Below are positions 1 to 20,000 of a stretch of 20,000 nt of DNA, in pieces. Location: NCBI GenBank assembly GCA_965178125.1, contig OZ237774.1, positions 556,229 to 576,228 on the forward strand, given 5' to 3'. Under the pieces are notes generated by a model. The model made no database searches. It saw nothing but the letters and a program-made list of their open reading frames with translations, and was not told the origin of the DNA. How positions within the stretch are numbered: the stretch's first letter is position 1; each line of letters begins with the position of its first letter. The translations under genes and the position numbers were made by a program. The DNA comes from Bilabrum cf. latius. Its lineage: Eukaryota.

Positions 1-1
1 C

Positions 2-3000: not shown

Positions 3001-4504
3001 GGGCGCTCGCGGCATCGAGATTGGGTGCGCGCTGCTGCTTCGGGCCAGAGACAAGAAGGGCGCGGCATCTGCGGCGTGGGGGCTGGCCGCTTCGGCAGCG
3101 GTGCGCGGTGCCACCCAGCTGCGGGGGGTTGCAGGGGGTGCCCGCGGGGGAGCCAGGGAGGCGGGGCTGCATCGGTCGGCTGCCAGTCTGCAAGAGGCGG
3201 GGCGCATGGCTTCGCTGGCCACGGCCTGCCTGCGAGCGGAGCCCGATGCGCGGCGCCGTTGGGTGCCTCACGGGGGCCGAGTCCTGGATCGATCGGAGCT
3301 GCGGTTTCTGTCGGCAGCCCTCGAGGCGATGGGCAGGTGCGTCCAGGCGGCGAGCGAGCACGTGGATGGTGCTGGGGGGTAGAGGGGCAATGGAGGTGCT
3401 GGAGGGCAGGTTACCGCCGCCGATGCTGCTGCTGCCGCTGGAGAGGCCAGGGCGATTGTGGGTATGTGTCCGGTGGAGTGGAGCAGTCCGGGTGCAGTGC
3501 ACGGCGGTTCTATCCCTGTGGATGTGCTCCTGTCCCAGTGCATCCGACTGGGCCAGCTGCCCGCGGGCGAGCGGGTGGCAGCGGCGGCGGCTGCTTGGCG
3601 CGAGGCGGGGGCATGCCAGGAGGGGCGCGCTGTGGCGGGCGAGGGAGGGGCGGGACGGCGGGGGCTCGGCCCCAGTGGCAGTGCAGCACGGGGTCAGGAG
3701 CTCCGTGTGACGAGGGCGGCTGCCATGCTGGCCTGGGACCGAGCCCGGGACGAGGGCGCTGGGCGGCGGGGGGCCATGCAGCGGGCGGCAGCTGCAGCTG
3801 TGCCTGCCGTGCAGCGGGACTCTGTGGGGCTGCATGCCGGCGGGAGAGCTGCAGGTGTCGATGCTTCGCGAGGGGCTGGGCGCCAGGACCCCGGGGGTCT
3901 AGCCCGAGTGCTGGTGCGGGTGGGTCGGCCTGCAGAGGCGCTGTCGGCGCTGCTGGGGAGTGTGCCCGCCTCGCTGATTGAGATGAGGGGCAGTGTGACG
4001 AGTGCTTCGATGCCGCAGGGGGCGCTGGACGAGGCACTGCAGGCGGCGGAGGCTGTGGAGCTCCTGGGGGCAGACAGGGGTGTAGCGGCGAGTGTGCGGG
4101 CGGCAAGGGGGGCTGTGCTGGCTCGGCTGCACGACGCTGGGTGGGCCGCGGCTGAGGGGGCAGCCGAGCGGCAGGCGGCACATGCGGCAGGGATGCAGCC
4201 TGGGGTGGTACAGGGTGCGATGGAGCGGGAGGGGGAAGGACGGGGGGGAGGGGCTGGTGGGGTGCGGCTTGGTGAGGGGTGCCAGGCCTCGGCTGGGGGT
4301 GCACGTGCCGCTGCACTGGCCCTGAGGCCCCGAGCTGGGCTGGGGGTGTCGGGGGGCACCGGGCTGCTGCGGGGGTATGCAAGGAAGCAGGCGGTGAGCA
4401 GGGGAGGGGGCGAGGGCGGGGCAAGCGCGGCGCGGCTGGCAGCACTGGCAGCGGCAGTGCGGGCCCGTCCGTCGGCCGATCTGCCCCGCGAGCTGGTGGG
4501 CTGA
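2..4504 (+). CDS. Large (>=1500 aa) Gly/Ala-rich protein of unknown function, 5' end outside the window; needs TAG read as sense
   Basis: ORFs 68-790, 830-1573, 1595-2152, 2159-2758, 2855-3382 and 3458-4504 share one frame. They are separated only by single TAGs (35, 788, 1571, 2150, 2756, 3380), with no TAA/TGA until TGA-TGA at 4502-4507. No domain recognised. Confidence 0.75.
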
Positions 4505-4761
4505 TGATGCCGGTTGTGCACCGGGCGGTTCTGGTGGTTGAGAATTTAAGATTTTTGTAGGGTCCACAGAAGCTCAACGGATTCGATATTGGATGGTGTA
4601 CACAGTGGTGGCACGGCCAGCCTAGATCAATCGAGCCTTTTTTGTGCCGCATTCGTCACATGCTGCCACTGCTTCGGGAACAGTTGCAGTTCGAGAAAAC
4701 ACACACGACACAAGCTTGTTGGTTCAGTGTAACCCTAGTAATCTTTTCAATCGCCCTGGTT

Positions 4762-5733
4762 ATGTCGACACGTAGAGGTGGTGCGTCCAAGGGGAAGCCA
4801 AAGCATTAGAATAAGTTCGGTTTCAAGCACAACAAGAACAGTAAAAAGACCAAGATGATCTAGGTAATGCCGATTGAAGGGGTATGCCCTCGGTGCGCAG
4901 AGATTTTGATGTGGAGGAAGAAGTACAGGAAGTACAAGCCTCGCACGAAGCCCGGGAAGTGCATCAAGTGCCACGAACCTAAAGTCAGGCACGCCTACCA
5001 CTAGCTGTGTTCAGAGTGTGCAAAGGGTGATCGAAAATGCGCGAAATGTTCCGGCCCGATCCGTGGAGAGCGTCCTGGCGATGGCACTGCCGCTGCTTCT
5101 TTGGACCCCCTCGTTGTGGAGCGGAAGGAGGCGCTCGAGTCGGAGCTGGACAGCCTGGTGGAGGCCTCGCACCCTGACTACACGGAGAGGCAGAGGAGGG
5201 CCCGCATCAGGGAGATCCAGAAGGAGCTGGAGGTCATGGAGGAGAAACCAGAGGTTGCGCTGGAGGGAGTGCTGGATGAGGGAACTGCCGGTGAGGCGAG
5301 AGCAGGGGCTGCAGTGGGCGGGGCGGGTGCTGCAATGGGAGGGGCAGGTGCCAGCGAGAGCAAAGGGGGCGATGACGGGGAGGAAGAGAGAGAGGACGAA
5401 GATGGAGGGACTGGGCTGGGGCTGCCTGCATCTGCTGCTGCACCGGGAATGGGAGCAGGAGCGGGAGCAGGGGCGGGGGCAGGGGCGGGAGCTGGTGACG
5501 TATCGTCTGGAGGAGCGGTCCGGGCCACCGCTGGTGTGGCTGATGCAGAGGCCGGTGCTGTGGCTGAGGCTGGGGCTGAGGCTACAATGGGCGGGTTTGG
5601 TGCTGGTCTAGCTGATCCTGTAGCATCTGAATCCAGTGAAATTGCGAGCGTGGGTGATGATCGTGTTGCAGCCGGCGATAGTGCTACAAGAGTTGGAGGA
5701 GCGAGTGGCGCGGTATCGGGCATGCCAACTTGA
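4762..5733 (+). CDS. C9orf85: C9orf85/DUF2039-like Cys-rich protein (323 aa) with a long acidic, Ala/Gly-rich C-terminal tail
   Basis: ATG 4762 gives MSTRRGGASKGKPKH*NKFGFKHNKNSKKTKMI*VMPIEGVCPRCAEILMWRKKYRKYKPRTKPGKCIKCHEPKVRHAYH*LCSECAKGDRKCAKC. This fits the remembered family pattern KHQN..F.....GVC.RC.E...WR.KY.KYKP...P.KC.KC....V...YH..C..CA.....CAKC. TAGs at 4807, 4861, 5002; in frame with ORF 5101-5733, ends TGA. Confidence 0.88.
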
Positions 5734-5813
5734 TGCTGGCTCGGTGCATGGGGGACTGGTATTGAAAATGGCTAGCCCTAAATGGTCATGAAAACACACA
5801 ATACAGCTCCAGC

Positions 5814-8099
5814 TCACGTCGGTCTACTGGCCCCTCTTTGCCCCTGTCCGGATCGAGACCCACCCCCCAGCCCGCCCCCCAGCAGAAGCACAGCACCAGC
5901 CACGGCTGCCCCCGCGATGGCCCCCGCAGCCACACCGAGCAGGACAGCACTTGATCCTGCACCGCTGCTTCCCAGTACCATGCTCGCGCTCTCAAAGAAC
6001 CCCTTCTCGCTCAAGATTGCACCAGCACCGCCAGCACCACTGGCACCACTGGCACCAGCATCAGCTCCAACGGTACCTCCACTCTCGCCCTGCCCGATGC
6101 TCCCGGCAACTGTGCCACCGCCCCTCTCATGCCCTTCTCCCACACCCGCGTCCCACCCCTCAGGCACCTATCTCCCCGCCGCCCCGCACACTGCCCTCCC
6201 CAGCGCCCAGTAGTCGCCCTCTCTGTTGTACACGTGGCAGCTGAGACGCACCCACAGTCTGCCGCCCAGCAGCTTCACCGGGCATTCAATCCCAAGAGAA
6301 AACAGCCAGTCCTGCACTGCCTTGCAGTGCGTCGATGTCGGTGCTTGCACATGTGCCTACCTCTGCCCTGGCCCCCGCCCCTGCTCCACTCCCGGAGGCA
6401 GGATCCCATCGGGCAGCGGGACCAGTCTCAGGTGGGAGTGCAGGCTGTCGGGCAGCAGCTGGGGCCCGGGTCCGGGGGCGCGATCGTGTGACGCATATGC
6501 TGGGCTGTAGCCACCCCCTGCCCCTGCCCTGGCCCCTGCCCTTTCCACATCCTTGCCCCCCTCTTGTTCACCAAACCATGCCCGCCTCAGCTCCCCGTCC
6601 ACTCGCCGCAGCAGTGCCCTGCACCTTGCCTGCATCCCCCGCATGCCACCCCCCTTGGCCTCCCACCAGTCCAGCACCTCTGGAATAGCAAGGGCAGTGG
6701 CATAGTCCCTGCACCCGTCCCAGACGAATGCCCCCGCGAACCCCGCCTCGGCCCCATGCGACCTCACGGGAGGCACGCACAGGTCCCTCCCGCGCTGGGA
6801 GACCACCAGGGCGGCCACTCCTCGGGGGGCGCACAGCCACTTGTGCCCGTTGGTGACGAAGAAATCGAAGGGGAGGGAGGCCAGTGGCTGGTCCAGGCTG
6901 TGCGGGGGGACTCCCCTGGGCCGACGGAGAGACCCGCTTACGCGGCGGGAGGGCGAGGGGGAGGGGGAGGATGATCGCAGGCCGGTGCGGGGAGGAGTGC
7001 TGGCGCGGGAAGAGGTCACCGAGGATGCCACGGAACTCGGAGCCGAATGTCCGTTTGCGGCCGGCTTCCCCATGCTCAGCTGTCCCCAGGCGTGGGCGCC
7101 GTCCACCAGCACAAGGGCGCCTGACGAGTGCCTCCGGGCTGCAGCTGCCACCGCCCGCACTCCCTCCCACCAGACGCCCCCCGAGTTGCTTGTCACCAGG
7201 TCCACGACGACCAGGGCACAGGCGCAGTCCGGTGGCAGTGTGACGAGTGCCCTCTCGGCGGCGTCCTCCAGCACGTTGGTGGCAGCAGCTGCCGTGCAGT
7301 CCAGGGGTAGCGGGACGTCGGCAATAGCGGGAGGGGGCGCCCCCGCCTCTGCGCAGTATGCGCGGGCCATGGTTTTGTTGGCCCCGTAGCCCAGCGAGAG
7401 CAAGAGCACGCCCCGCTTGCTGCCCAGCCTCGCGCTGCGGAAGGCGGCGTTCACCCCAGTGGTCGCGTTGGGCACGAGAGCCACGCGGCGATGGCTCACC
7501 CCGAGGCTGATAGCCGTCCTGCGGATCGCGTGCGCGAGATGCGGGAAGAGCGCTCTATCCACGGCGCGCAGGGGCTGCCTCTCGATCCACGCTCGCCAAG
7601 CAGAGGCCACTGCATGGCCCACCAGGCAAGGGGCTCCAAATGCGCCGTGGTTGAGGAAGCGCCAGCGATCCTCTTCTGTGATATTTAGGCCTACTTCAGA
7701 TTCGGACAGGGCGCCACTCGTGCTGCTCGACTCGTGAGTTTCAAGTGCCTGCGACGGGCTAGGTTTGCCGTCGATGGTGTCGGACAGCTGCACGAGAAAC
7801 GCCTTGTGACGGCAAGCCGGATCCGACCAGCTCGGCACCTCTGCCATAGCACTGTTGATTGCTTTCTGAACTTCCGTAGGGACTGGGGGTCGGGGCATGT
7901 CGTCAGGTGCGAGCAACTAGTCCACCGATGCGCCCATGAACGAACCGAAGCCCTGATAGCCCGCTTTGGCTGCAGTGGCTGGATCGTCGGATACCATGCT
8001 GGGATAAACAGCATGAAGTCTTTCAGGAAGAGTGCTTTTGGTTTCCATCGCTTCCGCTTGGTGGTGTAAGCGCCCACTCGCGATCCAAGACGAGTTCAT
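5814..8099 (-). CDS. PLP-dependent aminotransferase class V, L-cysteine desulfhydrase / isopenicillin-N epimerase / Egt2-like lyase (up to 761 aa; start uncertain)
   Basis: Motifs FLNHGAFGA, LVPNATTGVN, VDGAHAWGQ, DFFVTNGHKWLCAPRG (PLP Lys), DGCRDY, then IECPVK and WVRLSCHVYN..GDY after an in-frame TAG. Four same-frame ORFs are joined by TAGs at 7917-7919, 6357-6359 and 6168-6170; ends TGA at 5814-5816. Confidence 0.85.
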
Positions 8100-8243
8100 T
8101 GACGGTTCGGCACGAACTTTGCGAGCTTATTTGGAGGAAGTTAATTCGGGTAGGGATGGCTTCCTGCGTACAAGCTACATTGTTGTGACCCGTAGTAGTC
8201 TAGAAGAGCCTGGTGTTTTGCCGGCGGAATTCGCAACTGCCAC

Positions 8244-10463
8244 ATGTCACCAGAATCGTTGGCGCATGGCGGAGTAACCCGCCTTGCGATCCTGTCCCTG
8301 ACAAACCTTCCGGTCTTGCTACCGGCCGTGTGGATTATGCGGCAAGGTCTCCTACTTGAAGGGCTTGTTCTTGCTACGGTTGCTTTCGCTTCGACTATGT
8401 ACCACGCTTGCGACGAAGAGTGGCCGACCGAATGCAGTGCCTCATCGTTCCGGGTGATGAAGGCATTCGATGAATCCGTGGCTCGCACAGCTGCCGTCGT
8501 TGGGGCAGCATTGCTGGGTGGTGCGCCAAGGCGGCTGCGAAGGGTTGCCATCGTTGCCTCGCTCGTTGGGTGCGCCTGTCTCCAGGCGTCCCCGAACGGG
8601 TCCGATTCCTCCCTCGTTCTCGCGGTGAGCTTCGCTGTCATGGCGGGCCTCGGAGGCTTGGTGTATGCCATCGCGCGGTCCTCCCTTCGATTCGCCACGG
8701 GAGCCAGGTGCATCGCCCTGGCGCACCGCCTGCATCTGCAGCGGCGCAAGCACGGTATGCCAGGTGCTGCAAGCAAGAGTGCTACTGGCTCGTCGAATAC
8801 TGCGAGTGGGGGAGCGGCCGATGAAGGCGAGGAGGACACGGTGAGTCGATTGGAGGATCAGCTGCGTGCTTCTTTGCATTGGTGGGCATTGCTAGGCGAG
8901 AGCGGTCACAGCGAGCATGACGGGAGTGCGGTGCCTGGCTGGGAACTGCCCCGCGGTGAGGTGGGGCTGGGGACTGGCAGGATTGCAGGTGTGACGAGTG
9001 TAGACGATGGCGTGCATCCGGGGGAAGGGGCCGATTGCTGTTTCCCTGCAGGGCCACAGGGGAGGTGCTGCTGCATGCAACAAGCTGGAACTGCCACCGG
9101 CACCGGCACCGGCATTGCCTCAAGGAGGGCGAGCAGCAGCAACGGCAGGCGCTGGAACCAAGACGGGAAGCATGCCGCACACAGTAGCAACGCTGACAAT
9201 GGGAGCCGCAGCCTCGTTCATGCCCCTCTGCCATCGAGCGAGCCAGTGGGCAAGAGCAGCTCCCCCAGGCAGCAGGTGTCCCCACCCAACGGCATGGCCC
9301 GGCTCCGCTCCTCGGGGGGATCCCCCGCCATGGTCCCCTCCATGGGGCGAGAGGCTGACCTGGAGATGGGGACATACATCCCGGCTCCGAGTCCGCTGCG
9401 GGGCCGGTCTGTTGCTCCGGCCGTGGGAAGGCAGGCTGAGTAGGCTCCAGTCCCAGGGGCCCGGGCTGGTCCTAGCTGCCTTGGCTTGTGTTCCCTGGCC
9501 TCTTGTTCCCTGAGCTAGTGTGCTCGTGTGCTTGCAGATGCAGCCGGTGTGCGTCCCTTGCTGTGGCTGCCTTCTGCCTGTGGCTCGGCGCTGGGCGGGG
9601 AGTTGCAGCTGTGTCTGTGCCCCTGTGTGGCAATGGGGTGCGGGGGGGCGGGGCTGCGGGCGGGGCCCGAGGTGTGGAGGCGTAGGGTGATAGTGCAGGC
9701 GCTGGTGCTGTGGGGCTGGTGGCAGGATGGTGATGAGAGGGGTAAGCGGGGTTGTTTCTGGAGATGGCTGGGGCTGGGCGGTGATGCATCAACAACGAAA
9801 TCAACAGCCGGTGATATGGTGAGAGAGGAGTTGGGCACAGGAGCGGATGGAACTAGCAGGGGTGGAATCAGCATGGCAGGATGGCTACAGGACATGCAGC
9901 TGCTGGCAGGGGATCGTGATCGTCAGGCAGGTGGAGTGGACAATGACAGGGGCCCCACAGTGGGGGCCGGATGCTGCGGGCGATTGCGAGCATTGGTCGC
10001 TGCCTGCCTGGTGCTTGGGTACGGATGCGGGCACGGCCGGAATGTGCGCTGGGTGGGACTGTTGGCGAGCGTGTTTCTAGTGGTGTGCGGGGGCATTGTG
10101 TTCGTGTACGCCAACGCAAGTGAGGATGAGTAGGGTAGGTGTGGTTCGGTGGATGCATTTGCCGGTTGTGGAGGCAATGAAGGTGGGCGGGTAGCGGGCA
10201 AGGAGGGGTGGGGGGCGGTGTCGCTGGAGGCGTGGTGGTAGGTAGCGAGGTATCCGTTGCTGCACGGGGCCTGGCACTTGCTGGTGATGTGGGGGCTGGC
10301 GGGGGCGGTGAGCAGGGGCTGGTGGGGCAGGCGGACTGGGGGTGGGAGGGAGGTGCGGATGGGGAGTGAGCTCGTGGTGGGGATGGACAGGCACGGGGTC
10401 ATTGGGGAAGAAATGCAATTGGCAAGGGGGCTCCTGAGGGGCATGGCTCTGGATGATGAATGA
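8244..10463 (+). CDS. TMEM8/PGAP6/myomaker-like (DUF3522, CREST superfamily) multi-pass membrane protein, 739 aa with large low-complexity insertions
   Basis: N-terminal LTNLPVLLPAV...LEGLVLATVAFASTMYHACD...FD and C-terminal YPLLHGAWHLL give the CREST SxxxH / D / HxxxH set. The two parts are in one frame, joined through TAGs at 9441, 9516, 10131 and 10239; ends TGA at 10461-10463. Confidence 0.75.
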
Positions 10464-10591
10464 CTAGGAGGCAAACTCAACTCGAAACCCCCTCGCAACC
10501 AACTGAGGAACCCGGAACTGCCAGATTTCCATGGCGGCAGCCGTCTGGCTGCTGCTACTGTGCGACGGCATTTTGATTCCTCTTCTCCACA

Positions 10592-11302
10592 ATGTCGTAG
10601 AGGCGATCAGGACAGGCAATCGTATAGCCAATTCATCGCCTCTTTGACTTCTTGCAAAAGGTGGGACACACCGACCATGTGTTGAATCACATGCTTACCT
10701 CGATGCAGTCTGATGTCATCGAATCTTGCGCCCAGCCTGGTATTTCTTGCTTTCATTAGTATTGTGTATAATATTTTCGCAGAGAACAAAGGTTCACGTT
10801 TGGCTAGTCGAGAAAAAGCATGAGAGACTTGAGGGCTATGTCGCTGGCTTCGACGAATACATGAATACGGTACTAGGTGAGACATGATTTGGCCGACTGT
10901 ATGTATTGTATGCATGCTTAGGCCCACTTGCTCCAAGCCTTCCTACTACGTACATTGAAACCTTCACATCGTTATTGCTCGATTTTGTGAGATTCCAACT
11001 TCATCCTGATCGCGCTTGTCTATTGTATTCTTTCATTGGTGTACGCAGATGATTGTTATGAACTAAATGCTAAAACTAGGAAGAGAACGCATCTTGGTCG
11101 CTTGTTACTGAAAGGGGACAACATTGTACTGATCCAGCCAGCTCCGGCTGGTGGCAGTGCACCTGCTGGTGCAGCCGAGGGTACCAGCGATGTTGCTGCT
11201 AGCAGCAGCAGCAGCAGCAGCAGCAGCTCAGCTTCTAGTAGTGCACCACCGCCACCGCCAGCACAGCCTGCAGCCGCTGCTGCAGCCAGCGGGGGGCAGT
11301 GA
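10592..11302 (+). CDS. SNRPE: Small nuclear ribonucleoprotein SmE; exons 10592-10660, 10783-10876, 11049-11302 (138 aa)
   Basis: Spliced translation MS*RRSGQAIV*PIHRLFDFLQK|RTKVHVWLVEKKHERLEGYVAGFDEYMNTVL|DDCYELNAKTRKRTHLGRLLLKGDNIVLIQ... matches SmE (VQPI..IF..LQ, WL.E, GFDEYMN.VLDD, LGRI.LKGDNI). TAGs at 10598 and 10625; ends TGA. Confidence 0.95.
10661..10782 (+). other. Spliceosomal GT-AG intron 1 of SmE (122 nt, phase 0)
   Basis: AAG|GTGGGA ... TTTTCGCAG|AGA; AT-richer than the exons of the neighbouring genes; removal restores the SmE alignment (LQK|R). Confidence 0.88.
10877..11048 (+). other. Spliceosomal GT-AG intron 2 of SmE (172 nt, phase 1)
   Basis: CTAG|GTGAGA ... GTACGCAG|AT; removal restores VLDD. 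Confidence 0.9.
11201..11227 (+). repeat. (AGC)9 coding microsatellite encoding poly-Ser in the SmE tail
   Basis: Read directly from the sequence. Confidence 0.9.
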
Positions 11303-11777
11303 GTGCAAGAGGCAATTGGCTGTGCTGCCTGCTGGACCGGTTGGTCGCCTGTCGTGTTGCAGGGACAAGATTCTTGGGAATAGTATCTTTCAGATCTTGA
11401 GCAATTTGCTCTTAGTGAGCAGGTTAACCCTAAGTCAACAGTTCAATATCGCGTGTTGGGTCGCGCCGTGTTCAGCGTAGCGTCATACATCCTCATAACC
11501 CTTGCCTCCGATCGGCAGCCGCACCATGAGGTCCTGTCAAACGTACCCGACAGCAGGCCCACCTTATATCCCCCTAAGCGCCGCATCAGTGGCCGCACAA
11601 GCTTGCCAGCCTCCTTCCCGCCTTCGCTGCATTTTCAGAATACAGCATCCGCTGCCCTTGTCTCCGAAGCGGTCACGGTACTGCTCCTAAACCCAACCAT
11701 TATATCGTCCACAGCTTTTCCATCTGCCCACCAACTGCCTCGTGGTCCATCCGCGGCACCATCCAGTCACCGGCCCA

Positions 11778-12799
11778 TTAGGTTAGGGGGGGTTAGGGGT
11801 TTAGGGTTAGGGGTTTAGGGTTAGGGTTAGTAAGGGTTAGGGTTAGGGTTAGGGTTAGGGTTAGGGTTAGGGTTAGGGTTAGGGTTAGGGTTAGGGTTAG
11901 GGTTAGGGTTAGGGTTAGGGTTAGGGTTAGGGTTAGGGTTAGGGTTAGGGTTAGGGTTAGGGTTAGGGTTAGGGTTAGGGTTAGGGTTAGGGTTAGGGTT
12001 AGGGTTAGGGTTAGGGTTAGGGTTAGGGTTAGGGTTAGGGTTAGGGTTAGGGTTAGGGTTAGGGTTAGGGTTAGGGTTAGGGTTAGGGTTAGGGTTAGGG
12101 TTAGGGTTAGGGTTAGGGTTAGGGTTAGGGTTAGGGTTAGGGTTAGGGTTAGGGTTAGGGTTAGGGTTAGGGTTAGGGTTAGGGTTAGGGTTAGGGTTAG
12201 GGTTAGGGTTAGGGTTAGGGTTAGGGTTAGGGTTAGGGTTAGGGTTAGGGTTAGGGTTAGGGTTAGGGTTAGGGTTAGGGTTAGGGTTAGGGTTAGGGTT
12301 AGGGTTAGGGTTAGGGTTAGGGTTAGGGTTAGGGTTAGGGTTAGGGTTAGGGTTAGGGTTAGGGTTAGGGTTAGGGTTAGGGTTAGGGTTAGGGTTAGGG
12401 TTAGGGTTAGGGTTAGGGTTAGGGTTAGGGTTAGGGTTAGGGTTAGGGTTAGGGTTAGGGTTAGGGTTAGGGTTAGGGTTAGGGTTAGGGTTAGGGTTAG
12501 GGTTAGGGTTAGGGTTAGGGTTAGGGTTAGGGTTAGGGTTAGGGTTAGGGTTAGGGTTAGGGTTAGGGTTAGGGTTAGGGTTAGGGTTAGGGTTAGGGTT
12601 AGGGTTAGGGTTAGGGTTAGGGTTAGGGTTAGGGTTAGGGTTAGGGTTAGGGTTAGGGTTAGGGTTAGGGTTAGGGTTAGGGTTAGGGTTAGGGTTAGGG
12701 TTAGGGTTAGGGTTAGGGTTAGGGTTAGGGTTAGGGTTAGGGTTAGGGTTAGGGTTAGGGTTAGGGTTAGGGTTAGGGTTAGGGTTAGGGTTAGGGTTA
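11778..12799 (+). repeat. Telomeric tract 1, (TTAGGG)n, ~1020 bp
   Basis: Variant units at 11778-11836 (TTAGG, TTAGGGGGGG, TTAGGGG, TTTAGGG, TTAG-TAAGGG), then ~160 perfect repeats. Confidence 0.98.
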
Positions 12800-12832
12800 C
12801 AGTACCATCCTAGGCCAGGCCCGGGCGCCGCG

Positions 12833-12870
12833 AAAGTATCATGTTCCGCAAAAAGTATCATGTTCCGCAA
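12833..12870 (+). repeat. 19-bp tandem duplication AAAGTATCATGTTCCGCAA x2 near the left end of A (also at 15663-15700)
   Basis: Two perfect adjacent copies, 12833-12851 and 12852-12870. Confidence 0.9.
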
Positions 12871-14905
12871 TGACGGCGGTGCCGCGCAGTGTCCAAGTGG
12901 TCGCAAGATCGCGCCGAGGCGGATCTTGGCCAGTTGCAGAGATGCAAGCAGTCGACAAGAGGTGCGAGTGGTTGGCAATGCATATTTGGTGTATGATTAT
13001 GCGTGTCTGCTTGGTTTGCAATGAATCTCGGCCTCGGTCTCCTCGGTGGTGCGGCTCATGGGTGACGAACACCCAGGGGGCTGCACGGGATGGACGCGCA
13101 CCCGGCGAGTCTGGACCAAACCGCGTCGTGCAAATTGGGTTTGCCAAGGAGGTGTGCCCTGCTGTGTTTCGCCCGCGAGAATAGGGGGTTGTCTCCCCGT
13201 CGGGCAGGTATTCCATCCAGCTCGCCCGTCCGTGACTGAGACAGCACGGGCCGCGACAAGTGCGCGAGCCCGGGGATCAAGTCAGCGGCCGATGGCAGCG
13301 AGCCGGCATGAAGCGCGTGCACGAGGAGCTTGCGCTCCCCATGCACTGCCTGCCCCACCTCATTGCGGATCTGGGACATCAGGTTCATCGTGTTGCCACA
13401 CACACCTCCACACTCGACGATCGGATCTACAGAGACACCTGTCCCGGGATGCTGCTCCTCGTCATTGGCCTGCTCCTTCTCGCCCCGGGGGCACGCGCTG
13501 CCTCGAAGCACGCACCCGCGCTCCCGCCCGACTCAAGGACTGAGTGCTGGGAGGGTGCGCGGGCAGCCGCGTGAGAGGATGACGGGCGTGCCGCCGAAGG
13601 CCGAGTCCAGGAGCTGGGGACGGGACGCATCGTTGGGACTGCCCTGAAGAGACCAAAGAATCAACCGCCATCCGTACGGAACCCTATATGGTCGGCCGGT
13701 CTGACTCTCTGCTCGCCCACCGCACGGATCTGCTCAGTTCCATGCAATGTTTGCCAGAAGCGGCGAGAGGGTCTCATCAGCACAGGTGGGTCCTAAAAGC
13801 TGCCTGCAATGCATAAGAAAAGAATAAAACGGTTGAAAATAAATTAATAGCCCCTCGATGCATGGCAACATACCCGAGTGCTGCCATGAAAACCGGACAA
13901 CGCACAAGCACGTCAGCAGACCAGCGACCTTCCCATTCAGATGCCAGAACCTAACACAAATACAAAGCAAACAAACTGAATGAATACAATAGAATCAAAA
14001 TACCTGGCGGTTGTTTTACTCGGGCTATGCTGTACCTGGCTGTTCTGTCTGCAAGCGCCATCGCGCGCCCCAATGAGGCGAGACCTAAGCAGAGCTACAG
14101 CAGCATGCCACCTTGGACACACCGCGATATACGGCAGTAAATGGTATTAAATATTAATCCCAACAGGTTCCAGGACACTTGAGACTGTCTGTGGTGCTGA
14201 GAGGTATGGTTGCGCTAGATTTCGCAAACGGTTGTGAACAGCGGAACCAGTTAGCTAGGCGGCGCGGCGTCTTAGGCTGCACAATGCTGCCAGACTCAGC
14301 AGTGAATACCGTCAATCTCGCATCATAGTTTCAAACGATGAGTACTTTTGTTGTATGTGTTAGTGGAAGTCAGTCCGAGTGCATTGGTTGGGCGAATATT
14401 TGAGATTCTCTCACCTTCGCAGTTGCTGCAGCTACTAGATGTATACGCGGACCATCCACTACTTCGCAATATGAAAACGCTGGCGCATTATTTCCGCATG
14501 AATTCAACTGAGTCCCCTTCCACACGCTAGGCAGCAAGCATCACTATTCACCAGTGGACTTGCCAAAGTCCCTACTACTCCTGTAGTGGCTGCCTGGGCT
14601 GATTCCGATGTCCGGGTTATCAATACCGTCCTAGCACGCTGCCAGAAACCTTCATTGAATGCAATCAAATATCATTGCCTGAGGTGCCGGTCATTTGGAT
14701 AGAGAAGGAAGTCACATTTCTGCTGGCTGGCACTGAGGTGCTGCCTCAAGGACGTCGTCCTACATGTTGGGACCAAGCAAATCATACTCCGTTCGGTGGA
14801 TTGATCGTTGTACAAGTTTTAAGACTTTATATATCGAGTTACCATGCGGACCACAAAGCGGACCGATCCCAAGGTGGCACATCCGCATCTCCACCCAGTG
14901 GGGCT

Positions 14906-15501
14906 CCCAACCAGCTTGCCCCAGCATAGCCACCATGGCCCCATCCATCGCCCACACACCCAACCAGCTTGCCCCGGCACAGCCACCACGGCCCCCTCCA
15001 TCGCCCACACACCCAACCAGCTTGCCCCAGCACAGCCACCACGGCCCCCTCCATCGCCCGCACTCCCGACCTGCTTGCCCCAGCACAGCCACCATAGCCC
15101 CCATCCATCGCCCACACACCCTACTTGCTCCGGCACAGCCACCATGGCCCCCTCCATCGCCCACACACCCAACCAGCTTGCCCCAGCACAGCCACCATGG
15201 CTCCATCCATCGCCCACACACCCAACCAGCTTGCCCCAGCACAGCCACCATGGCTCCATCCATCGCCCACACACCCAACCAGCTTGCCCCGGCACAGCCA
15301 CCATAGCCCCCATCCATCGCCCACACACCCTACTTGCTCCGGCACAGCCACCATGGCCCCATCCATCGCCCACACACCCAACCAGCTTGCCCCAGCACAG
15401 CCACCATGGCTCCATCCATCGCCCACACACCCAACCAGCTTGCCCCGGCACAGCCACCATAGCCCCCATCCATCGCCCACACACCCTACTTGCTCCGGCA
15501 C
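14906..15501 (+). repeat. C-rich minisatellite, 49-54-bp units, 11 full copies plus a partial
   Basis: Unit CCCAACCAGCTTGCCCCAGCACAGCCACCATGGCCCCATCCATCGCCCACACA. Starts at 14906, 14959, 15012, 15065, 15119, 15168, 15221, 15274, 15328, 15377, 15430, 15484. Confidence 0.95.
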
Positions 15502-15629
15502 AGGGTTAGGGTTAGGGTTAGGGTTAGGGGTTAGGGTTAGGGTTAGGGTTAGGGTTAGGGTTAGGGTTAGGGTTAGGGTTAGGGTTAGGGTTAGGGTTAG
15601 GGTTAGGGTTAGGGTTAGGGTTAGGGTTA
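15502..15629 (+). repeat. Telomeric tract 2, ~21 TTAGGG units
   Basis: Perfect apart from one TTAGGGG near the left end. Confidence 0.97.
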
Positions 15630-17329
15630 CAGTACCATCCTAGGCCAGGCCCGGGCGCCGCGAAAGTATCATGTTCCGCAAAAAGTATCATGTTCCGCAA
15701 TGACGGCGGTGCCGCGCAGTGTCCAAGTGGTCGCAAGATCGCGCCGAGGCGGATCTTGGCCAGTTGCAGAGATGCAAGCAGTCGACAAGAGGTGCGAGTG
15801 GTTGGCAATGCATATTTGGTGTATGATTATGCGTGTCTGCTTGGTTTGCAATGAATCTCGGCCTCGGTCTCCTCGGTGGTGCGGCTCATGGGTGACGAAC
15901 ACCCAGGGGGCTGCACGGGATGGACGCGCACCCGGCGAGTCTGGACCAAACCGCGTCGTGCAAATTGGGTTTGCCAAGGAGGTGTGCCCTGCTGTGTTTC
16001 GCCCGCGAGAATAGGGGGTTGTCTCCCCGTCGGGCAGGTATTCCATCCAGCTCGCCCGTCCGTGACTGAGACAGCACGGGCCGCGACAAGTGCGCGAGCC
16101 CGGGGATCAAGTCAGCGGCCGATGGCAGCGAGCCGGCATGAAGCGCGTGCACGAGGAGCTTGCGCTCCCCATGCACTGCCTGCCCCACCTCATTGCGGAT
16201 CTGGGACATCAGGTTCATCGTGTTGCCACACACACCTCCACACTCGACGATCGGATCTACAGAGACACCTGTCCCGGGATGCTGCTCCTCGTCATTGGCC
16301 TGCTCCTTCTCGCCCCGGGGGCACGCGCTGCCTCGAAGCACGCACCCGCGCTCCCGCCCGACTCAAGGACTGAGTGCTGGGAGGGTGCGCGGGCAGCCGC
16401 GTGAGAGGATGACGGGCGTGCCGCCGAAGGCCGAGTCCAGGAGCTGGGGACGGGACGCATCGTTGGGACTGCCCTGAAGAGACCAAAGAATCAACCGCCA
16501 TCCGTACGGAACCCTATATGGTCGGCCGGTCTGACTCTCTGCTCGCCCACCGCACGGATCTGCTCAGTTCCATGCAATGTTTGCCAGAAGCGGCGAGAGG
16601 GTCTCATCAGCACAGGTGGGTCCTAAAAGCTGCCTGCAATGCATAAGAAAAGAATAAAACGGTTGAAAATAAATTAATAGCCCCTCGATGCATGGCAACA
16701 TACCCGAGTGCTGCCATGAAAACCGGACAACGCACAAGCACGTCAGCAGACCAGCGACCTTCCCATTCAGATGCCAGAACCTAACACAAATACAAAGCAA
16801 ACAAACTGAATGAATACAATAGAATCAAAATACCTGGCGGTTGTTTTACTCGGGCTATGCTGTACCTGGCTGTTCTGTCTGCAAGCGCCATCGCGCGCCC
16901 CAATGAGGCGAGACCTAAGCAGAGCTACAGCAGCATGCCACCTTGGACACACCGCGATATACGGCAGTAAATGGTATTAAATATTAATCCCAACAGGTTC
17001 CAGGACACTTGAGACTGTCTGTGGTGCTGAGAGGTATGGTTGCGCTAGATTTCGCAAACGGTTGTGAACAGCGGAACCAGTTAGCTAGGCGGCGCGGCGT
17101 CTTAGGCTGCACAATGCTGCCAGACTCAGCAGTGAATACCGTCAATCTCGCATCATAGTTTCAAACGATGAGTACTTTTGTTGTATGTGTTAGTGGAAGT
17201 CAGTCCGAGTGCATTGGTTGGGCGAATATTTGAGATTCTCTCACCTTCGCAGTTGCTGCAGCTACTAGATGTATACGCGGACCATCCACTACTTCGCAAT
17301 ATGAAAACGCTGGCGCATTATTTCCGCAT
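15630..17329. mobile_element. Cassette A, second copy (A'), right-truncated (1700 bp)
   Basis: Matches 12800-14499 at a constant offset of 2830; ORF-track translations are identical. It diverges at ...TTCCGCAT|G versus ...TTCCGCAT|TAGGTTAGGG. Confidence 0.6.
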
Positions 17330-17436
17330 TAGGTTAGGGTTAGGGTTAGGGTTAGGGTTAGGGTTAGGGTTAGGGTTAGGGTTAGGGTTAGGGTTAGGGT
17401 TAGGGTTAGGGTTAGGGTTAGGGTTAGGGTTAGGGT
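17329..17436 (+). repeat. Telomeric tract 3, ~18 units
   Basis: TTAGG followed by perfect TTAGGG, ending GGGT. Confidence 0.97.
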
Positions 17437-18625
17437 ATCAGGGGGTCAACTTATACTTAGGGTCGGCCATTTTCGGCTTTTACGCTAGCGCGCGTCAGGG
17501 AACAAGACTAATATATTCTGATAGCGCATGCTTGAAAACCTAGGTTACAACTCTGAGTTGGGCCATAGCTCCCCGCGGCGCCGCGGTTCCGCAGGGTCAG
17601 TGAAATCCGTCAGGGCCGGGTGCCGTCTGGGGGTGGATCCGGAGTCGATATGCATGGACACCATTGTGTGCCCCATGATGTGTACATATGATGAGACACT
17701 TGAAACGCAGCGATTGCATGTGTTGCGGCCGAGATATGGTCGAGTCAGTGGATTTTACTGGCGGCACTGACGGCGATTTTGCCCCGAGTCAGTAAAATGG
17801 AGTACTGGCCGTTTGCGGTCTCGGATGGGCGTATTGGATCGCGGTTTTCGATGTGTTTGATGTGCCACGGTGCATGGGGCAGGGAACACACCCGCTACAA
17901 ACCCGTTCTGCCCGCGGCGCCGCGGTTCCGCAGGGTCAGTGAAATCCGTCAGGGCCGGGTGCCGTCTGGGGGTGGATCCGGAGTCGATATGCATGGACAC
18001 CATTGTGTGCCCCATGATGTGTACATACGATGAGACACTTGAAACGCAGCGATTGCATGTGTTGCGGCCGAGATATGGTCGAGTCAGTGGATTTTACTGG
18101 CGGCACTGACGGCGATTTTGCCCCGAGTCAGTAAAATGGAGTACCGGCCGTTTGCGGTCTCGGATGGGCGTATTGGATCGCGGTTTTCGATGTGTTTGAT
18201 GTGCCACGGTGCATGGGGCAGGGAACACACCCGCTACAAACCCGTTCTGCCCGCGGCGCCGCGGTTCCGCAGGGTCAGTGAAATCCGTCAGGGCCGGGTG
18301 CCGTCTGGGGGTGGATCCGGAGTCGATATGCATGGACACCATTGTGTGCCCCATGATGTGTACATACGATGAGACACTTGAAACGCAGCGATTGCATGTG
18401 TTGCGGCCGAGATATGGTCGAGTCAGTGGATTTTACTGGCGGCACTGACGGCGATTTTGCCCCGAGTCAGTAAAATGGAGTACTGGCCGTTTGCGGTCTC
18501 GGATGGGCGTATTGGATCGCGGTTTTCGATGTGTTTGATGTGCCACGGTGCATGGGGCAGGGAACACACCCGCTACAAACCCGTTCTGCCCGCGGCGCCG
18601 CGGTTCCGCAGGGTCAGTGAAATCC
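17437..18625. other. Telomere-embedded cassette B: ~135-bp unique leader plus 339-bp tandem array, truncated at right
   Basis: Flanked by tracts 3 and 4; no similarity to A seen. Confidence 0.7.
17572..18625 (+). repeat. 339-bp satellite, 3 full units plus 37 bp
   Basis: Units start at 17572, 17911, 18250, 18589. Only isolated C/T differences seen (TACATATGA/TACATACGA; GTACTGG/GTACCGG). Confidence 0.95.
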
Positions 18626-19120
18626 TTAGGTTAGGGTTAGGGGGTTAGGGGTTAGGGTTAGGGTTAGGGTTAGGGTTAGGGTTAGGGTTAGGGTTAGGGT
18701 TAGGGTTAGGGTTAGGGTTAGGGTTAGGGTTAGGGTTAGGGTTAGGGTTAGGGTTAGGGTTAGGGTTAGGGTTAGGGTTAGGGTTAGGGTTAGGGTTAGG
18801 GTTAGGGTTAGGGTTAGGGTTAGGGTTAGGGTTAGGGTTAGGGTTAGGGTTAGGGTTAGGGTTAGGGTTAGGGTTAGGGTTAGGGTTAGGGTTAGGGTTA
18901 GGGTTAGGGTTAGGGTTAGGGTTAGGGTTAGGGTTAGGGTTAGGGTTAGGGTTAGGGTTAGGGTTAGGGTTAGGGTTAGGGTTAGGGTTAGGGTTAGGGT
19001 TAGGGTTAGGGTTAGGGTTAGGGTTAGGGTTAGGGTTAGGGTTAGGGTTAGGGTTAGGGTTAGGGTTAGGGTTAGGGTTAGGGTTAGGGTTAGGGTTAGG
19101 GTTAGGGTTAGGGTTAGGGT
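18626..19120 (+). repeat. Telomeric tract 4, ~495 bp
   Basis: TTAGG, TTAGGG, TTAGGGGG, TTAGGGG, then perfect repeats ending GGGT. Confidence 0.98.
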
Positions 19121-20000
19121 ATCTAATATAAAGTCAGGGACAGGGTCGGGGAAAAAATATTTTCATCTTCATTTTTTTGTCGAAAATGTGCCCTCTGCGA
19201 TCTCAGCAACTAGAATAGGTATGAAGATGATTCAAACTGTTTTGGGATGGCCTAGGGCCATATCATGGGGCAAATGTTCCCCAGGTTCCGTTTTGACCGC
19301 GCGGCGACGATACTGGCTGATGAAGATTTACATGCCGAAAATGTGCCCTCTGCGATCTCAGCAACTAGAATAGGTATGAAGATGATTCAAACTGTTTTGG
19401 GATGGCCTAGGGCCATATCATGGGGCAAATGTTCCCCAGGTTCCGTTTTGACCGTGCGGCGACGATACTGGCTGATGAAGATTTACATGCCGAAAATGTG
19501 CCCTCTGCGATCTCAGCAACTAGAATAGGTATGAAGATGATTCAAACTGTTTTGGGACGGCCTAGGGCCATATCATGGGGCAAATGTTCCCCAGGTTCCG
19601 TTTTGACCGCGCGGCGACGATACTGGCTGATGAAGATTTACATGCCGAAAATGTGCCCTCTGCGATCTCAGCAACTAGAATAGGTATGAAGATGATTCAA
19701 ACTGTTTTGGGACGGCCTAGGGCCATATCATGGGGCAAATGTTCCCCAGGTTCCGTTTTGACCGCGCGGCGACGATACTGGCTGATGAAGATTTACATGC
19801 CGAAAATGTGCCCTCTGCGATCTCAGCAACTAGAATAGGTATGAAGATGATTCAAACTGTTTTGGGATGGCCTAGGGCCATATCATGGGGCAAATGTTCC
19901 CCAGGTTCCGTTTTGACCGCGCGGCGACGATACTGGCTGATGAAGATTTACATGCCGAAAATGTGCCCTCTGCGATCTCAGCAACTAGAATAGGTATGAA
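19121..20000. other. Telomere-embedded cassette C: 60-bp leader plus 155-bp tandem array running off the window
   Basis: Starts ATCTAATATAAAG immediately after GGGT. Confidence 0.7.
19181..20000 (+). repeat. 155-bp satellite, 5 full units plus a partial
   Basis: Units start at 19181, 19336, 19491, 19646, 19801, 19956; near-identical (GGATGG/GGACGG, CCGCGC/CCGTGC). Confidence 0.97.

Follow-up and report, generated by a model that had tools for sequence, protein, structure and literature searches.

A chromosome end of Bilabrum cf. latius carries a chain of non-telomeric DNA blocks (“cassettes”) separated by tracts of telomere repeats that all point in one direction. The chain is most likely the product of repeated recombinational copying and healing by telomerase, rather than of a new kind of retrotransposon. 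The main evidence is the anatomy of the chain, the junctions recovered in contigs derived from sequencing reads, the irregular repeats that open each tract, and the joint copying of a cassette and its healed junction in a related contig.

Architecture of the chromosome end

The window, i.e. the whole 20,000-nt stretch that was analyzed, was examined by direct reading, TRF, and a parse of the telomere tracts into repeat units. Gene-bearing unique sequence extends up to position 11777, and the chain lies beyond it. Four TTAGGG tracts (T1–T4), all G-rich on the + strand, set cassettes A, A', B, and C apart (Table 1). The dodecamer TTAGGGTTAGGG occurs 273 times on the + strand of the window and CCCTAACCCTAA not at all (mean in shuffles, 0.01). 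Thus, blocks of non-telomeric DNA with same-orientation telomere repeats on both sides are present beside the chromosome end. The perfect tracts between unrelated cassettes are 107–1,022 bases long. In the last gene before the chain, whose stop codon is 476 bases upstream of T1, the LSM profile (PF01423) covers positions 12–33 (E = 8e-4) and 40–66 (E = 3e-3) in the two exon pieces, each of which scores below the gathering threshold when taken alone.

Table 1. Features of the chromosome end (positions in the window).
Feature	Positions	Strand	Description
Last gene before the chain	10801..11302	+	LSm/Sm domain; two exon pieces (10801-10869, 11049-11302), one domain half each
T1 telomere tract	11778..12799	+	9 variant units, then 160 perfect TTAGGG plus TTA
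Cassette A	12800..15503	+	Direct reading, TRF, alignment to A', Logan contigs, contig L001
T2 telomere tract	15504..15629	+	Unit parse; 126 bases
Cassette A'	15630..17329	+	Copy of A 12800-14499; broken after ...TTTCCGCAT
T3 telomere tract	17330..17436	+	Unit parse; 107 bases
Cassette B	17437..18625	+	135-base leader, then 339-base units x3.1
T4 telomere tract	18626..19120	+	Unit parse
Cassette C	19121..20000+	+	60-base leader, then 155-base units x5.3 (at least); continues past the window end

Cassette A opens with CAGTACC and has a 19-base direct duplication at 12833–12870, a relic with codon-like periodicity on its minus strand (about 13175–13500), and a 53-base minisatellite at 14906–15486. 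Its left part, of about 1.1 kb, is multi-copy and conserved. Cassette A' is identical to the first 1,700 bases of A at 1,700 of 1,700 aligned columns. Both copies start at the same base (GGGTTA/CAGTACC), and this left boundary is the only one that they share within the window. The distal break of every capped cassette (A, A', and B) is at an arbitrary point that is followed by TTAGGG repeats: A breaks inside one 53-base unit at 15503; A' breaks at the equivalent of position 14499, where the intact A reads GCATG/AATTC; and B is broken after ...GTGAAATCC, at phase 37 of its fourth 339-base unit. An earlier note on this DNA had read the layout as gene-tel-A-tel-A'-tel-B-tel-C with all tracts G-rich on the + strand, and had claimed that the right ends are arbitrary (mid-minisatellite, mid-A, mid-339 unit) and capped by TTAGGG, and that both A copies start at the same base. 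This anatomy, with new blocks lying distal to complete telomere tracts, was borne out, the layout by all three methods and the common start by alignment.

Cassette B opens with ATCAGGGGG, and each of its 339-base units begins with the palindrome CCGCGGCGCCGCGG. Aside from chance pairs, the 14-base palindrome of B was the only inverted repeat found. Cassette C opens with ATCTAAT. In both B and C, ATC directly follows TTAGGGT, which might reflect a favored site of attachment. By alignment, A, B, and C have nothing in common with one another or with the unique region. All leader-to-leader alignments among the three scored under the shuffle maxima, i.e. the cassettes are without a common terminal sequence.

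The order of the chain is the one given by the assembly, and the strand invasion discussed below is proposed from assembled sequence.

Variant repeats at the tract openings

Variant repeats are confined to the proximal edge of each tract, and their pattern is distinct from tract to tract. T1 reads TTAGG, TTAGGGGGGG, TTAGGGG, TTTAGGG, TTAGGGG, TTTAGGG, TTAGGG, and TTAG-TAAGGG before its perfect run. T2 is seeded on ...CACAG and continues with GG, 3 TTAGGG, TTAGGGG, 16 TTAGGG, and TTA. T3 consists of (T)TAGG, 17 perfect TTAGGG, and T, and T4 of TTAGG, TTAGGG, TTAGGGGG, TTAGGGG, 78 perfect TTAGGG, and T. The variants are thus a few irregular units, and there is no block of the TTCGGG/TTTGGG type. 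An opening of TTAGG TTAGGG was found in four independent tracts (T1, T3, T4, and that of the metagenome contig L001, described below); T1, which adjoins unique sequence, has this opening too. The proximal variant units fit de novo addition to broken ends, and the first units after each right end look newly made. Since such new repeats cap every break, telomerase appears to be active in this organism.

Copies of cassette A in read-derived contigs

Logan contigs of four runs (X1, X2, X3, and X5) were queried with element A alone, carrying 22-base telomere flanks; these contigs show presence only. The tract/A start junction was recovered in X3 and X5, which belong to two studies, in contigs that extend beyond the first base of A by 28–30 bases of TTAGGG repeats. 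The A/T2 junction string was present in two runs (X1 and X2). X3 also contained a copy of the A family that breaks off at 13422 and continues as TTAGGG repeats, and X1 an additional minisatellite/AAGG-TTAGGG junction. The A'/T3 break at 14499 was not seen among the listed contig pieces and loose ends of the four runs, where the contigs are unbroken at that position; its absence weighs little, as a side branch present in single copy may be lost from Logan contigs. No contig listed for the four runs spans a tract, and the contigs reach only about 30 bases into the telomere repeats. One loose end, AACCCTAATATCAGGG..., was considered as a natural C-strand chromosome end and dropped: its contig goes on for at least 225 letters and need not be tract.

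Other A-family copies in X3 differ from A by about 1–5% (at 13 of 271 bases, 5 of 144, 3 of 290, and 12 of 520). The left part of A is 5–7 times deeper than its unique right part (391 vs. 56 in X3; 26.5 vs. 5.1 in X5), and the depth of the start-junction contig is close to that of the body (354 vs. 391 in X3; 25.5 vs. 26.5 in X5).

The exact 26-base start-junction pattern had no matches in metagenome contigs. One such contig (L001) contains a relative of A that is 88% identical over 1,075 bases and has the identical GGGTTA/CAGTAC start. Its healed distal junction, CAAACAG/TTAGG TTAGGG TTCTTAGGGGGG TTTAGGG, flanks the cassette on both sides and is identical over 99 bases; both boundaries and the tract opening are shared in this short-read metagenome assembly from another organism. 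There are 7 perfect repeats in the inner tract and at least 12 in the outer one, and the overlapping ends of the contig define a unit of 1,264 bases that comprises the cassette and a tract. The occurrence of so odd a junction on both sides suggests that the cassette and its healed junction were copied together as one DNA unit, with the qualification that the 99-base overlap may equal the word length of the assembler and that a circular molecule would give the same picture. A second contig (L002) was set aside; it showed 37% identity over 52 residues only and no telomere repeats.

Together, the family has one left end, which is the same base in both window copies, X3, X5, and L001, and at least five right ends (15503, 14499, 13422, minisatellite+AAG, and that of L001), all in one orientation. 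This is the pattern that the earlier note had described (fixed proximal end, variable telomere-capped distal ends).

Search for coding and RNA content

Neither a reverse transcriptase (RT) nor any other Pfam family was detected in the 14 cassette reading frames examined (E ≤ 1). Rfam searches of positions 10000–20000 (E ≤ 0.1) and 12700–20000 (E ≤ 10) returned no hammerhead or other family; the sole match, isrG, lies over an AGC repeat and was judged to be due to chance. No tRNA was found in the cassettes. For the 143 bases that would form the 3' end of a minus-strand RNA, predicted folding did not surpass that of shuffled sequences (z = -0.92), and direct reading of the fixed end of A revealed neither poly(A) nor poly(T).

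The periodic minus-strand frame of A (P0121) had three HMMER matches among 1.84 billion representatives. Two of these, P0122 and P0124, appear to be A-family frames of other copies without a Pfam family, and P0122 differs from the L001 frame by one residue; the third, an HYR-repeat protein, was regarded as a chance match. In L001, the frame meets a stop after 62 codons. A coding function for A was rejected, given that the frame is not conserved and belongs to no Pfam family. For the frame that crosses the start junction of A (P0125), no protein candidate was found in the 39–125 aa range. A promoter/terminator scan was discarded because it employs bacterial consensus sequences that are irrelevant to a eukaryote.

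The premise of the earlier note that TAG encodes Gln proved unnecessary here, as the standard code gives an uninterrupted frame for a 519-aa aminotransferase that is 93% identical to a database protein. Its affinity in Protein Atlas is broadly eukaryote/plant only; the chromosome end has been described as green-alga-like.

Discussion

The reading to which we assign somewhat better than an even chance is that a telomere end invades an internal tract, copies the DNA distal to it, and then breaks and is healed by telomerase, making this a young, recombination-built subtelomere. In the order of events that we infer, the chromosome would formerly have ended at T1, 476 bases past the LSm gene. The terminal G-strand telomere would have invaded a same-direction internal TTAGGG tract, either in its own chromatid or the sister, or at the end of a different chromosome, and primed DNA synthesis by D-loop or break-induced replication, such that all DNA distal to the donor tract was copied onto the end. 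The one exact start base of each cassette family would be kept by descent. The new end would later have been broken or eroded at an arbitrary point and healed by telomerase, which would leave a few error-prone first repeats, typically with TTAGG first, whereupon the cycle could repeat. Under this scheme, A' would be a local re-copy of the adjoining A, and B and C would come from other tract-flanked donors. Whatever DNA follows an internal tract could ride along as a passenger, and this would explain why the cassettes are unrelated, non-coding, and satellite-bearing. The identity of A' to the adjoining A, while other family copies differ by about 1–5%, points to the neighboring A as template, as in D-loop copying. 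Processes of this kind are on record for MoTeR arrays (PMC7367193) and for TALT blocks (PMC4595603). Break-induced copying had been named as an alternative in the earlier note, and the joint copying in L001 is what DNA copying predicts.

Several observations count against recombinational copying. Break-induced copying normally proceeds to the end of the donor, and a separate event of breakage and healing must therefore be assumed for every arbitrary right end; incomplete reverse transcription would yield such ends for free. The scheme does not account for the first tract/A, tract/B, and tract/C junctions. The ATC start that B and C have in common after TTAGGGT also belongs on this side. At 160 and 78 perfect repeats, internal tracts T1 and T4 are far longer than documented examples.

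Terminal retrotransposition in trans was the mechanism proposed in the earlier note: minus-strand RNAs running from a cassette into its proximal tract, with (CCCUAA)n at their end, would anneal to the G-overhang and be copied by an RT encoded elsewhere, and telomerase would extend incomplete copies. The A family has features expected of such a process, namely the single proximal end, the variable distal ends capped by newly made repeats, the uniform orientation, and a fixed end whose register against the telomere repeats is the one that pairing would predict. The same architecture is seen in endonuclease-deficient Penelope-like elements (PMC8557442) and truncated MoTeRs (PMC7367193). Against it stand the lack of an RT or other Pfam family in the 14 cassette frames examined, of any Rfam family at E ≤ 10, of poly(T) at the fixed end, and of distinctive folding at the would-be RNA terminus. 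The three cassettes also offer no common terminal sequence for one RT to recognize. Moreover, A' is an exact copy of its immediate neighbor despite the more numerous diverged copies, and in L001 the copy took in the healed junction as well. The last point is not strictly contrary to an RNA route, as an RNA spanning a healed junction could also spread it. We consider this mechanism unlikely. Of the first reading, the anatomy of the tract-capped chain stood, and the engine of minus-strand RNA and RT found no support.

It is likewise improbable that the junctions are real and the chain is partly a product of assembly, with cassettes of several ends joined through TTAGGG overlaps. That no contig spans a tract and that the 14499 break went unseen would agree with such joins, and a mis-join through the repeat could also make A and A' 100% identical. 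However, true ends joined via telomere repeats would lie head to head, and all 273 dodecamer matches (273/273) are on one strand. The usual overlaps of long-read assemblers exceed 107–126 bases, the lengths of T3 and T2. In addition, the proximal variant pattern is private to each tract, the link tract-cassette-tract-cassette is supported by reads within 99-base words in L001, and the unseen break is weak evidence for the reason given above.

Quite unlikely, in our estimation, is a more general process in a telomerase-positive green alga, in which chromosome ends would be extended by reverse transcription, with the telomere as primer, of any transcript ending in C-strand repeats. No element-specific signal would be involved, and the RT acting in trans would be of the Penelope-like type or telomerase itself. 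If true, unrelated, non-coding, satellite-bearing DNA that lies beyond an internal tract would turn into “passenger” terminal retroelements able to propagate themselves.

Circle-mediated addition, in which extrachromosomal circles of cassette plus tract (Y' circles, marked t-circles) integrate or roll out onto terminal telomeres, was already named in the earlier note and would suit the overlapping ends and 1,264-base unit of L001, but it is very unlikely: a monomer circle would not give the unequal tracts of L001, simple rolling-circle copying does not accord with the window, where every unit differs from the one before it and the healing pattern is peculiar to each right end, and recombinational integration would fix both cassette ends, unlike those of A and A'.

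Comparison with known chromosome ends

In Caenorhabditis elegans, TALT is an ordinary, telomere-adjacent genomic block between same-direction telomere tracts that is copied in tandem into telomeres; TALT1 contains a promoter and first exon, and amplification of the single block, with fixed ends, was seen in telomerase-deleted survivors (PMC4595603). Cassette A is similar in that it holds an exon-like relic and was copied in tandem with a fixed start. The present chain differs in that telomerase is apparently active, the three blocks are unrelated, distal ends vary, and internal tracts are long and perfect. Yeast Y' arrays have short TG1-3 tracts between units and are amplified in type I survivors; the units have both ends fixed, encode a helicase, and form one family. 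They resemble the chain as tandem subtelomeric elements with same-orientation internal telomere tracts and recombinational spread, whereas the cassettes here are heterogeneous and non-coding, with arbitrary, healed distal ends.

The MoTeR elements of Magnaporthe/Pyricularia lie between TTAGGG tracts with a variable 5' end toward the chromosome end, and truncated copies bear de novo telomere caps seeded on one or two bases (PMC7367193). In MoTeR arrays, a D-loop formed at an internal tract gives rise to a second copy of the proximal element, and break-induced replication extends the array; MoTeR1 encodes an RT, MoTeR2 shares the MoTeR1 ends, and both have TTCGGG/TTTGGG variants at the 5' end (PMC7367193). 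In contrast, the cassettes have no RT or other ORF family, no shared termini, and no variant-repeat block. The endonuclease-deficient Penelope-like elements Athena and Coprina attach to G-rich overhangs via reverse-complement telomere repeats at their 3' end, are terminal and singly oriented, have telomere-capped truncated copies, and carry an RT and a hammerhead ribozyme motif near the 3' repeats (PMC8557442). The cassettes share the fixed proximal end on telomere repeats, the variable capped distal ends, and the single orientation, but no RT or hammerhead was found in them.

In the green-algal relative Chlamydomonas reinhardtii, each unit of the Sultan arrays and of Suber (pTANC) has a telomere-like seed or a degenerate internal tract of about 80 bases, telomere healing and break-induced replication have been proposed for their turnover, and in a telomerase mutant a fragment was followed by a nine-repeat tract and then a Sultan array (PMC8287924, PMC10620057). 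These features recall the present chain. The tracts of Sultan and Suber, however, are short or degenerate and their arrays homogeneous, as opposed to perfect tracts between unrelated cassettes here. Searches of open-access text on green-algal subtelomeres turned up no account of a cassette chain like this one.

If the chain is physically real, it would be a natural example, in an organism that appears proficient in telomerase, of an arrangement described elsewhere chiefly for survivors of telomerase deficiency (TALT, Y') or for dedicated telomeric retrotransposons, with chromosome ends that repeatedly gained whole cassettes and then new caps. Two features stand out: internal tracts of up to 1 kb of perfect repeats, and one start base held across copies diverged by 1–5% and a relative at 88%. 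This chromosome end would be a tractable system for the tolerance of internal tracts, for the division of work between telomerase and recombination at algal ends, and for de novo telomere addition in a TTAGGG-type chlorophyte, where a TTAGG opening is followed by units with G- and T-slippage.

Architecture of the chain

As assembled, the sequence from 11778 onwards reads T1-A-T2-A'-T3-B-T4-C, where T1 to T4 are telomere tracts and A, A', B and C are non-coding cassettes. TTAGGGTTAGGG was matched 273 times on the + strand and 0 times on the other (shuffles gave 0.01). The layout described in the earlier note, with all tracts G-rich on + and separating the cassettes, was thus borne out. A' equals A at 1,700 of 1,700 shared positions, and both copies start at the same base, as had been claimed (GGGTTA/CAGTACC; slashes mark junctions). 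The right ends likewise fall at the arbitrary points proposed: A within a unit of its 53-base minisatellite, A' in mid-A (where intact A has GCATG/AATTC), and B after 37 bases of its fourth 339-base unit. No similarity was found when A, B and C were compared with each other and with the unique part. The otherwise unrelated B and C both open with (T)ATC directly after TTAGGG (window 17436-17443 and 19120-19127); this common start, 4 bases long, may be coincidental or may mark a favored site of attachment. The first 8 bases of B, TATCAGGG, are found again in a loose end, AACCCTAATATCAGGGTATAAGG..., located ahead of 53-base minisatellite units in the sequencing runs X2, X3 and X5.

Features of the chain and the adjoining gene
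Feature	Position	Detail
LSm-domain gene	10801-11302	stop codon 11300-11302; LSM profile match
TTAGG TTAGGG openings	11778-11835; 17329-17345; 18626-18655	also first 55 bases of L001 (G-strand view)
19-base direct duplication, AAAGTATCATGTTCCGCAA x2	12833-12870 (A); 15663-15700 (A')	33 bases from the fixed start of A; diverged form retained in L001 1219-1256
Codon-like GC periodicity	about 13175-13500, minus strand	0.84/0.44/0.70; inside A
53-base minisatellite of A	14906-15486	higher-order periods 156 and 209 bases
14-base perfect palindrome, CCGCGGCGCCGCGG	17573-17586; 17912-17925; 18251-18264; 18590-18603	opens each 339-base unit of B

Tests for a retroelement

The periodic minus-strand frame of A matched no known family; it is interrupted in L001 (a metagenome contig) and shifted in P0124 (apparently a frame from another A-family copy), and is probably the relic of an exon. 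Pfam returned a family for 0 of 14 cassette frames, Rfam (hammerheads included) gave nothing in the cassettes even at E<=10, and no tRNA was found. Poly(T) is absent at the fixed end, the fold of the would-be RNA 3' end is not unusual, and A, B and C have no termini in common. Endonuclease-deficient Penelope-like elements are described as defined by a reverse transcriptase (RT) together with a hammerhead next to telomere repeats in reverse complement (PMC8557442). Since the cassettes contain no Pfam or Rfam family, those defining features are missing, as are those of MoTeRs; only the end architecture is shared with either. Of the retrotransposition proposal, in which an RT acts in trans and telomerase heals the end, the architecture therefore stood, and the other hallmarks were absent from the cassettes. 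RNA-mediated end addition would predict variable distal ends without extra events, but we consider it unlikely to have built the chain.

Tract openings and the chromosome end

Variant units are confined to the centromere-side edge of each tract and are followed by 160 (T1), 16 (T2), 17 (T3) and 78 (T4) perfect units. T1, T3 and T4 open with TTAGG TTAGGG, to which T1 and T4 add G-slippage and TTTAGGG units; for T2 the seed is ...CACAG, in register. With L001, four independent openings of this kind were collected; the first G-run is one short in all four, and long G-runs, TTTAGGG or TTCTTAGGGGGG units often come next. Such an opening may be the signature of telomerase starting on non-telomeric ends in this organism. 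Since T1 adjoins unique sequence and opens as do the tracts capping broken cassettes, each tract can be read from its sequence as a telomere newly formed on a 3' end that was not telomeric, and later buried by the next cassette.

The first 11.7 kb of the window is gene-bearing (GC 55-73%) and contains a 519-aa class-V aminotransferase frame, whose best named relatives are from volvocine green algae (36-40% identity); an unnamed database protein is 93% identical. The last gene before the chain encodes an LSm domain, its 2 exon pieces matching the 2 halves of the LSM profile. It also encodes a poly-serine/alanine/proline tail (AGC x9 at 11201-11227). Only 476 bases, with no subtelomeric repeat, separate it from T1, and this chromosome end resembles a terminal deletion that has been healed. 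For window 1-10000, the frames examined do not require the TAG=Gln code assumed in the earlier note; under the standard code no stop interrupts the aminotransferase frame or, further on, the LSm exons. We infer that the host is a GC-rich chlorophyte. Among chlamydomonadalean algae, some clades are reported to have telomeres of the TTAGGG type, and their telomerases produce numerous TTTAGGG "errors" (PMC3318450).

Junctions in independent runs

Of eleven runs listed, four were used: element A with 22-base telomere flanks was aligned to the Logan contigs of X1, X2 and X3, which belong to one study, and of X5, which comes from a second study under the label of a different organism. Despite that label, a 972-base contig of X5 matches A with 0 differences. 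Contigs of X3 (record 17, depth 354) and X5 (record 25, depth 25.5) run over the first base of A into 28-30 bases of TTAGGG. Both are of a variant A type (differences at 12871, 12877, 12879 and beyond), so diverged copies share the start of A. The left ca. 1.1 kb of A is 5-7 times as deep as the right part (391 vs 56 in X3; 26.5 vs 5.1 in X5).

Contigs with ...CCGGCACAG+G+GTTAGGG are present in X1 (depth 746) and X2 (depth 389). By our own reading, checked against the window sequence, this string is the A/T2 junction, which the aligner set at an equivalent phase of the minisatellite. X1 holds an additional minisatellite/AAGG TTAGGG junction, and an A-family copy in X3 ends at 13422, followed by TTAGGGTTAGGGTTAGGTTAGGG. 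At least two different healed breaks fall in the minisatellite, which shows many internal rearrangement joints in the runs. The A' break at 14499 is not among the contig joints listed; each of the four runs has contigs that pass uninterrupted through this point, and such contigs drop minor branches.

None of the contigs of these runs can span a tract, and the chain order is that of the assembly. That the chain is partly an assembly artefact is nonetheless doubtful: all tracts lie on one strand, T2 and T3 are short, and each tract has its private opening.

A probably copied unit in a metagenome relative

L001 (1,386 bases) was found by a search with the periodic frame of A. On the G-strand it reads ...GGCAAACAG/TTAGG TTAGGG TTCTTAGGGGGG TTTAGGG (TTAGGG)7 TTA/CAGTACAATCC..., then a cassette 88% identical to A 12800-13827, then ...GGCAAACAG/TTAGG TTAGGG TTCTTAGGGGGG TTTAGGG (TTAGGG)>=12. 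The start junction is that of the window. Either side of the cassette carries an identical copy of the distal break and its peculiar tract opening (99 bases without a difference), and the two tracts are unequal in length (7 vs at least 12 TTAGGG). Because two independent healings would not coincide in both break point and irregular units, the whole unit (cassette plus healed junction) appears to have been copied, in a short-read assembly from another organism in which a circular molecule would look alike. Reads can directly carry the link that joins the cassette start, the tract and the broken cassette end, since it takes up no more than 99 bases. Circle-mediated addition agrees with L001 but disagrees with the heterogeneous units in the window, and is very improbable.

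Proposed mechanism

In the mechanism we favor, a terminal telomere would invade an internal same-direction tract and copy what lies beyond; the new end would afterwards be broken and healed, and the cycle would repeat. The single start base would then follow from descent, and the passengers would be unrelated because whatever lies distal to a tract is open to copying. Invasion-copying also accounts for the exact identity of A' with its neighbor although diverged copies are more numerous, for the private opening of each tract, and for whole-unit copying in L001. It does not explain the origin of the first tract/cassette junctions, the ATC after TTAGGGT in B and C, or the re-breakage of every window cassette.

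Precedents for each step are documented elsewhere. For MoTeR arrays, the proximal element is described as duplicated through a D-loop, the array as extended by break-induced replication, and truncated copies as receiving a de novo telomere (PMC7367193). In C. elegans, tract-flanked genomic blocks are reported to be copied in tandem, and TALT1 contains a promoter together with a first exon (PMC4595603), a content that may be likened to the exon-relic stretch of A. The best fit, and the most likely mechanism, is a new variant of the known TALT/Y'-like recombinational telomere-template arrays that also involves healing by telomerase, in a genome resembling that of a green alga.
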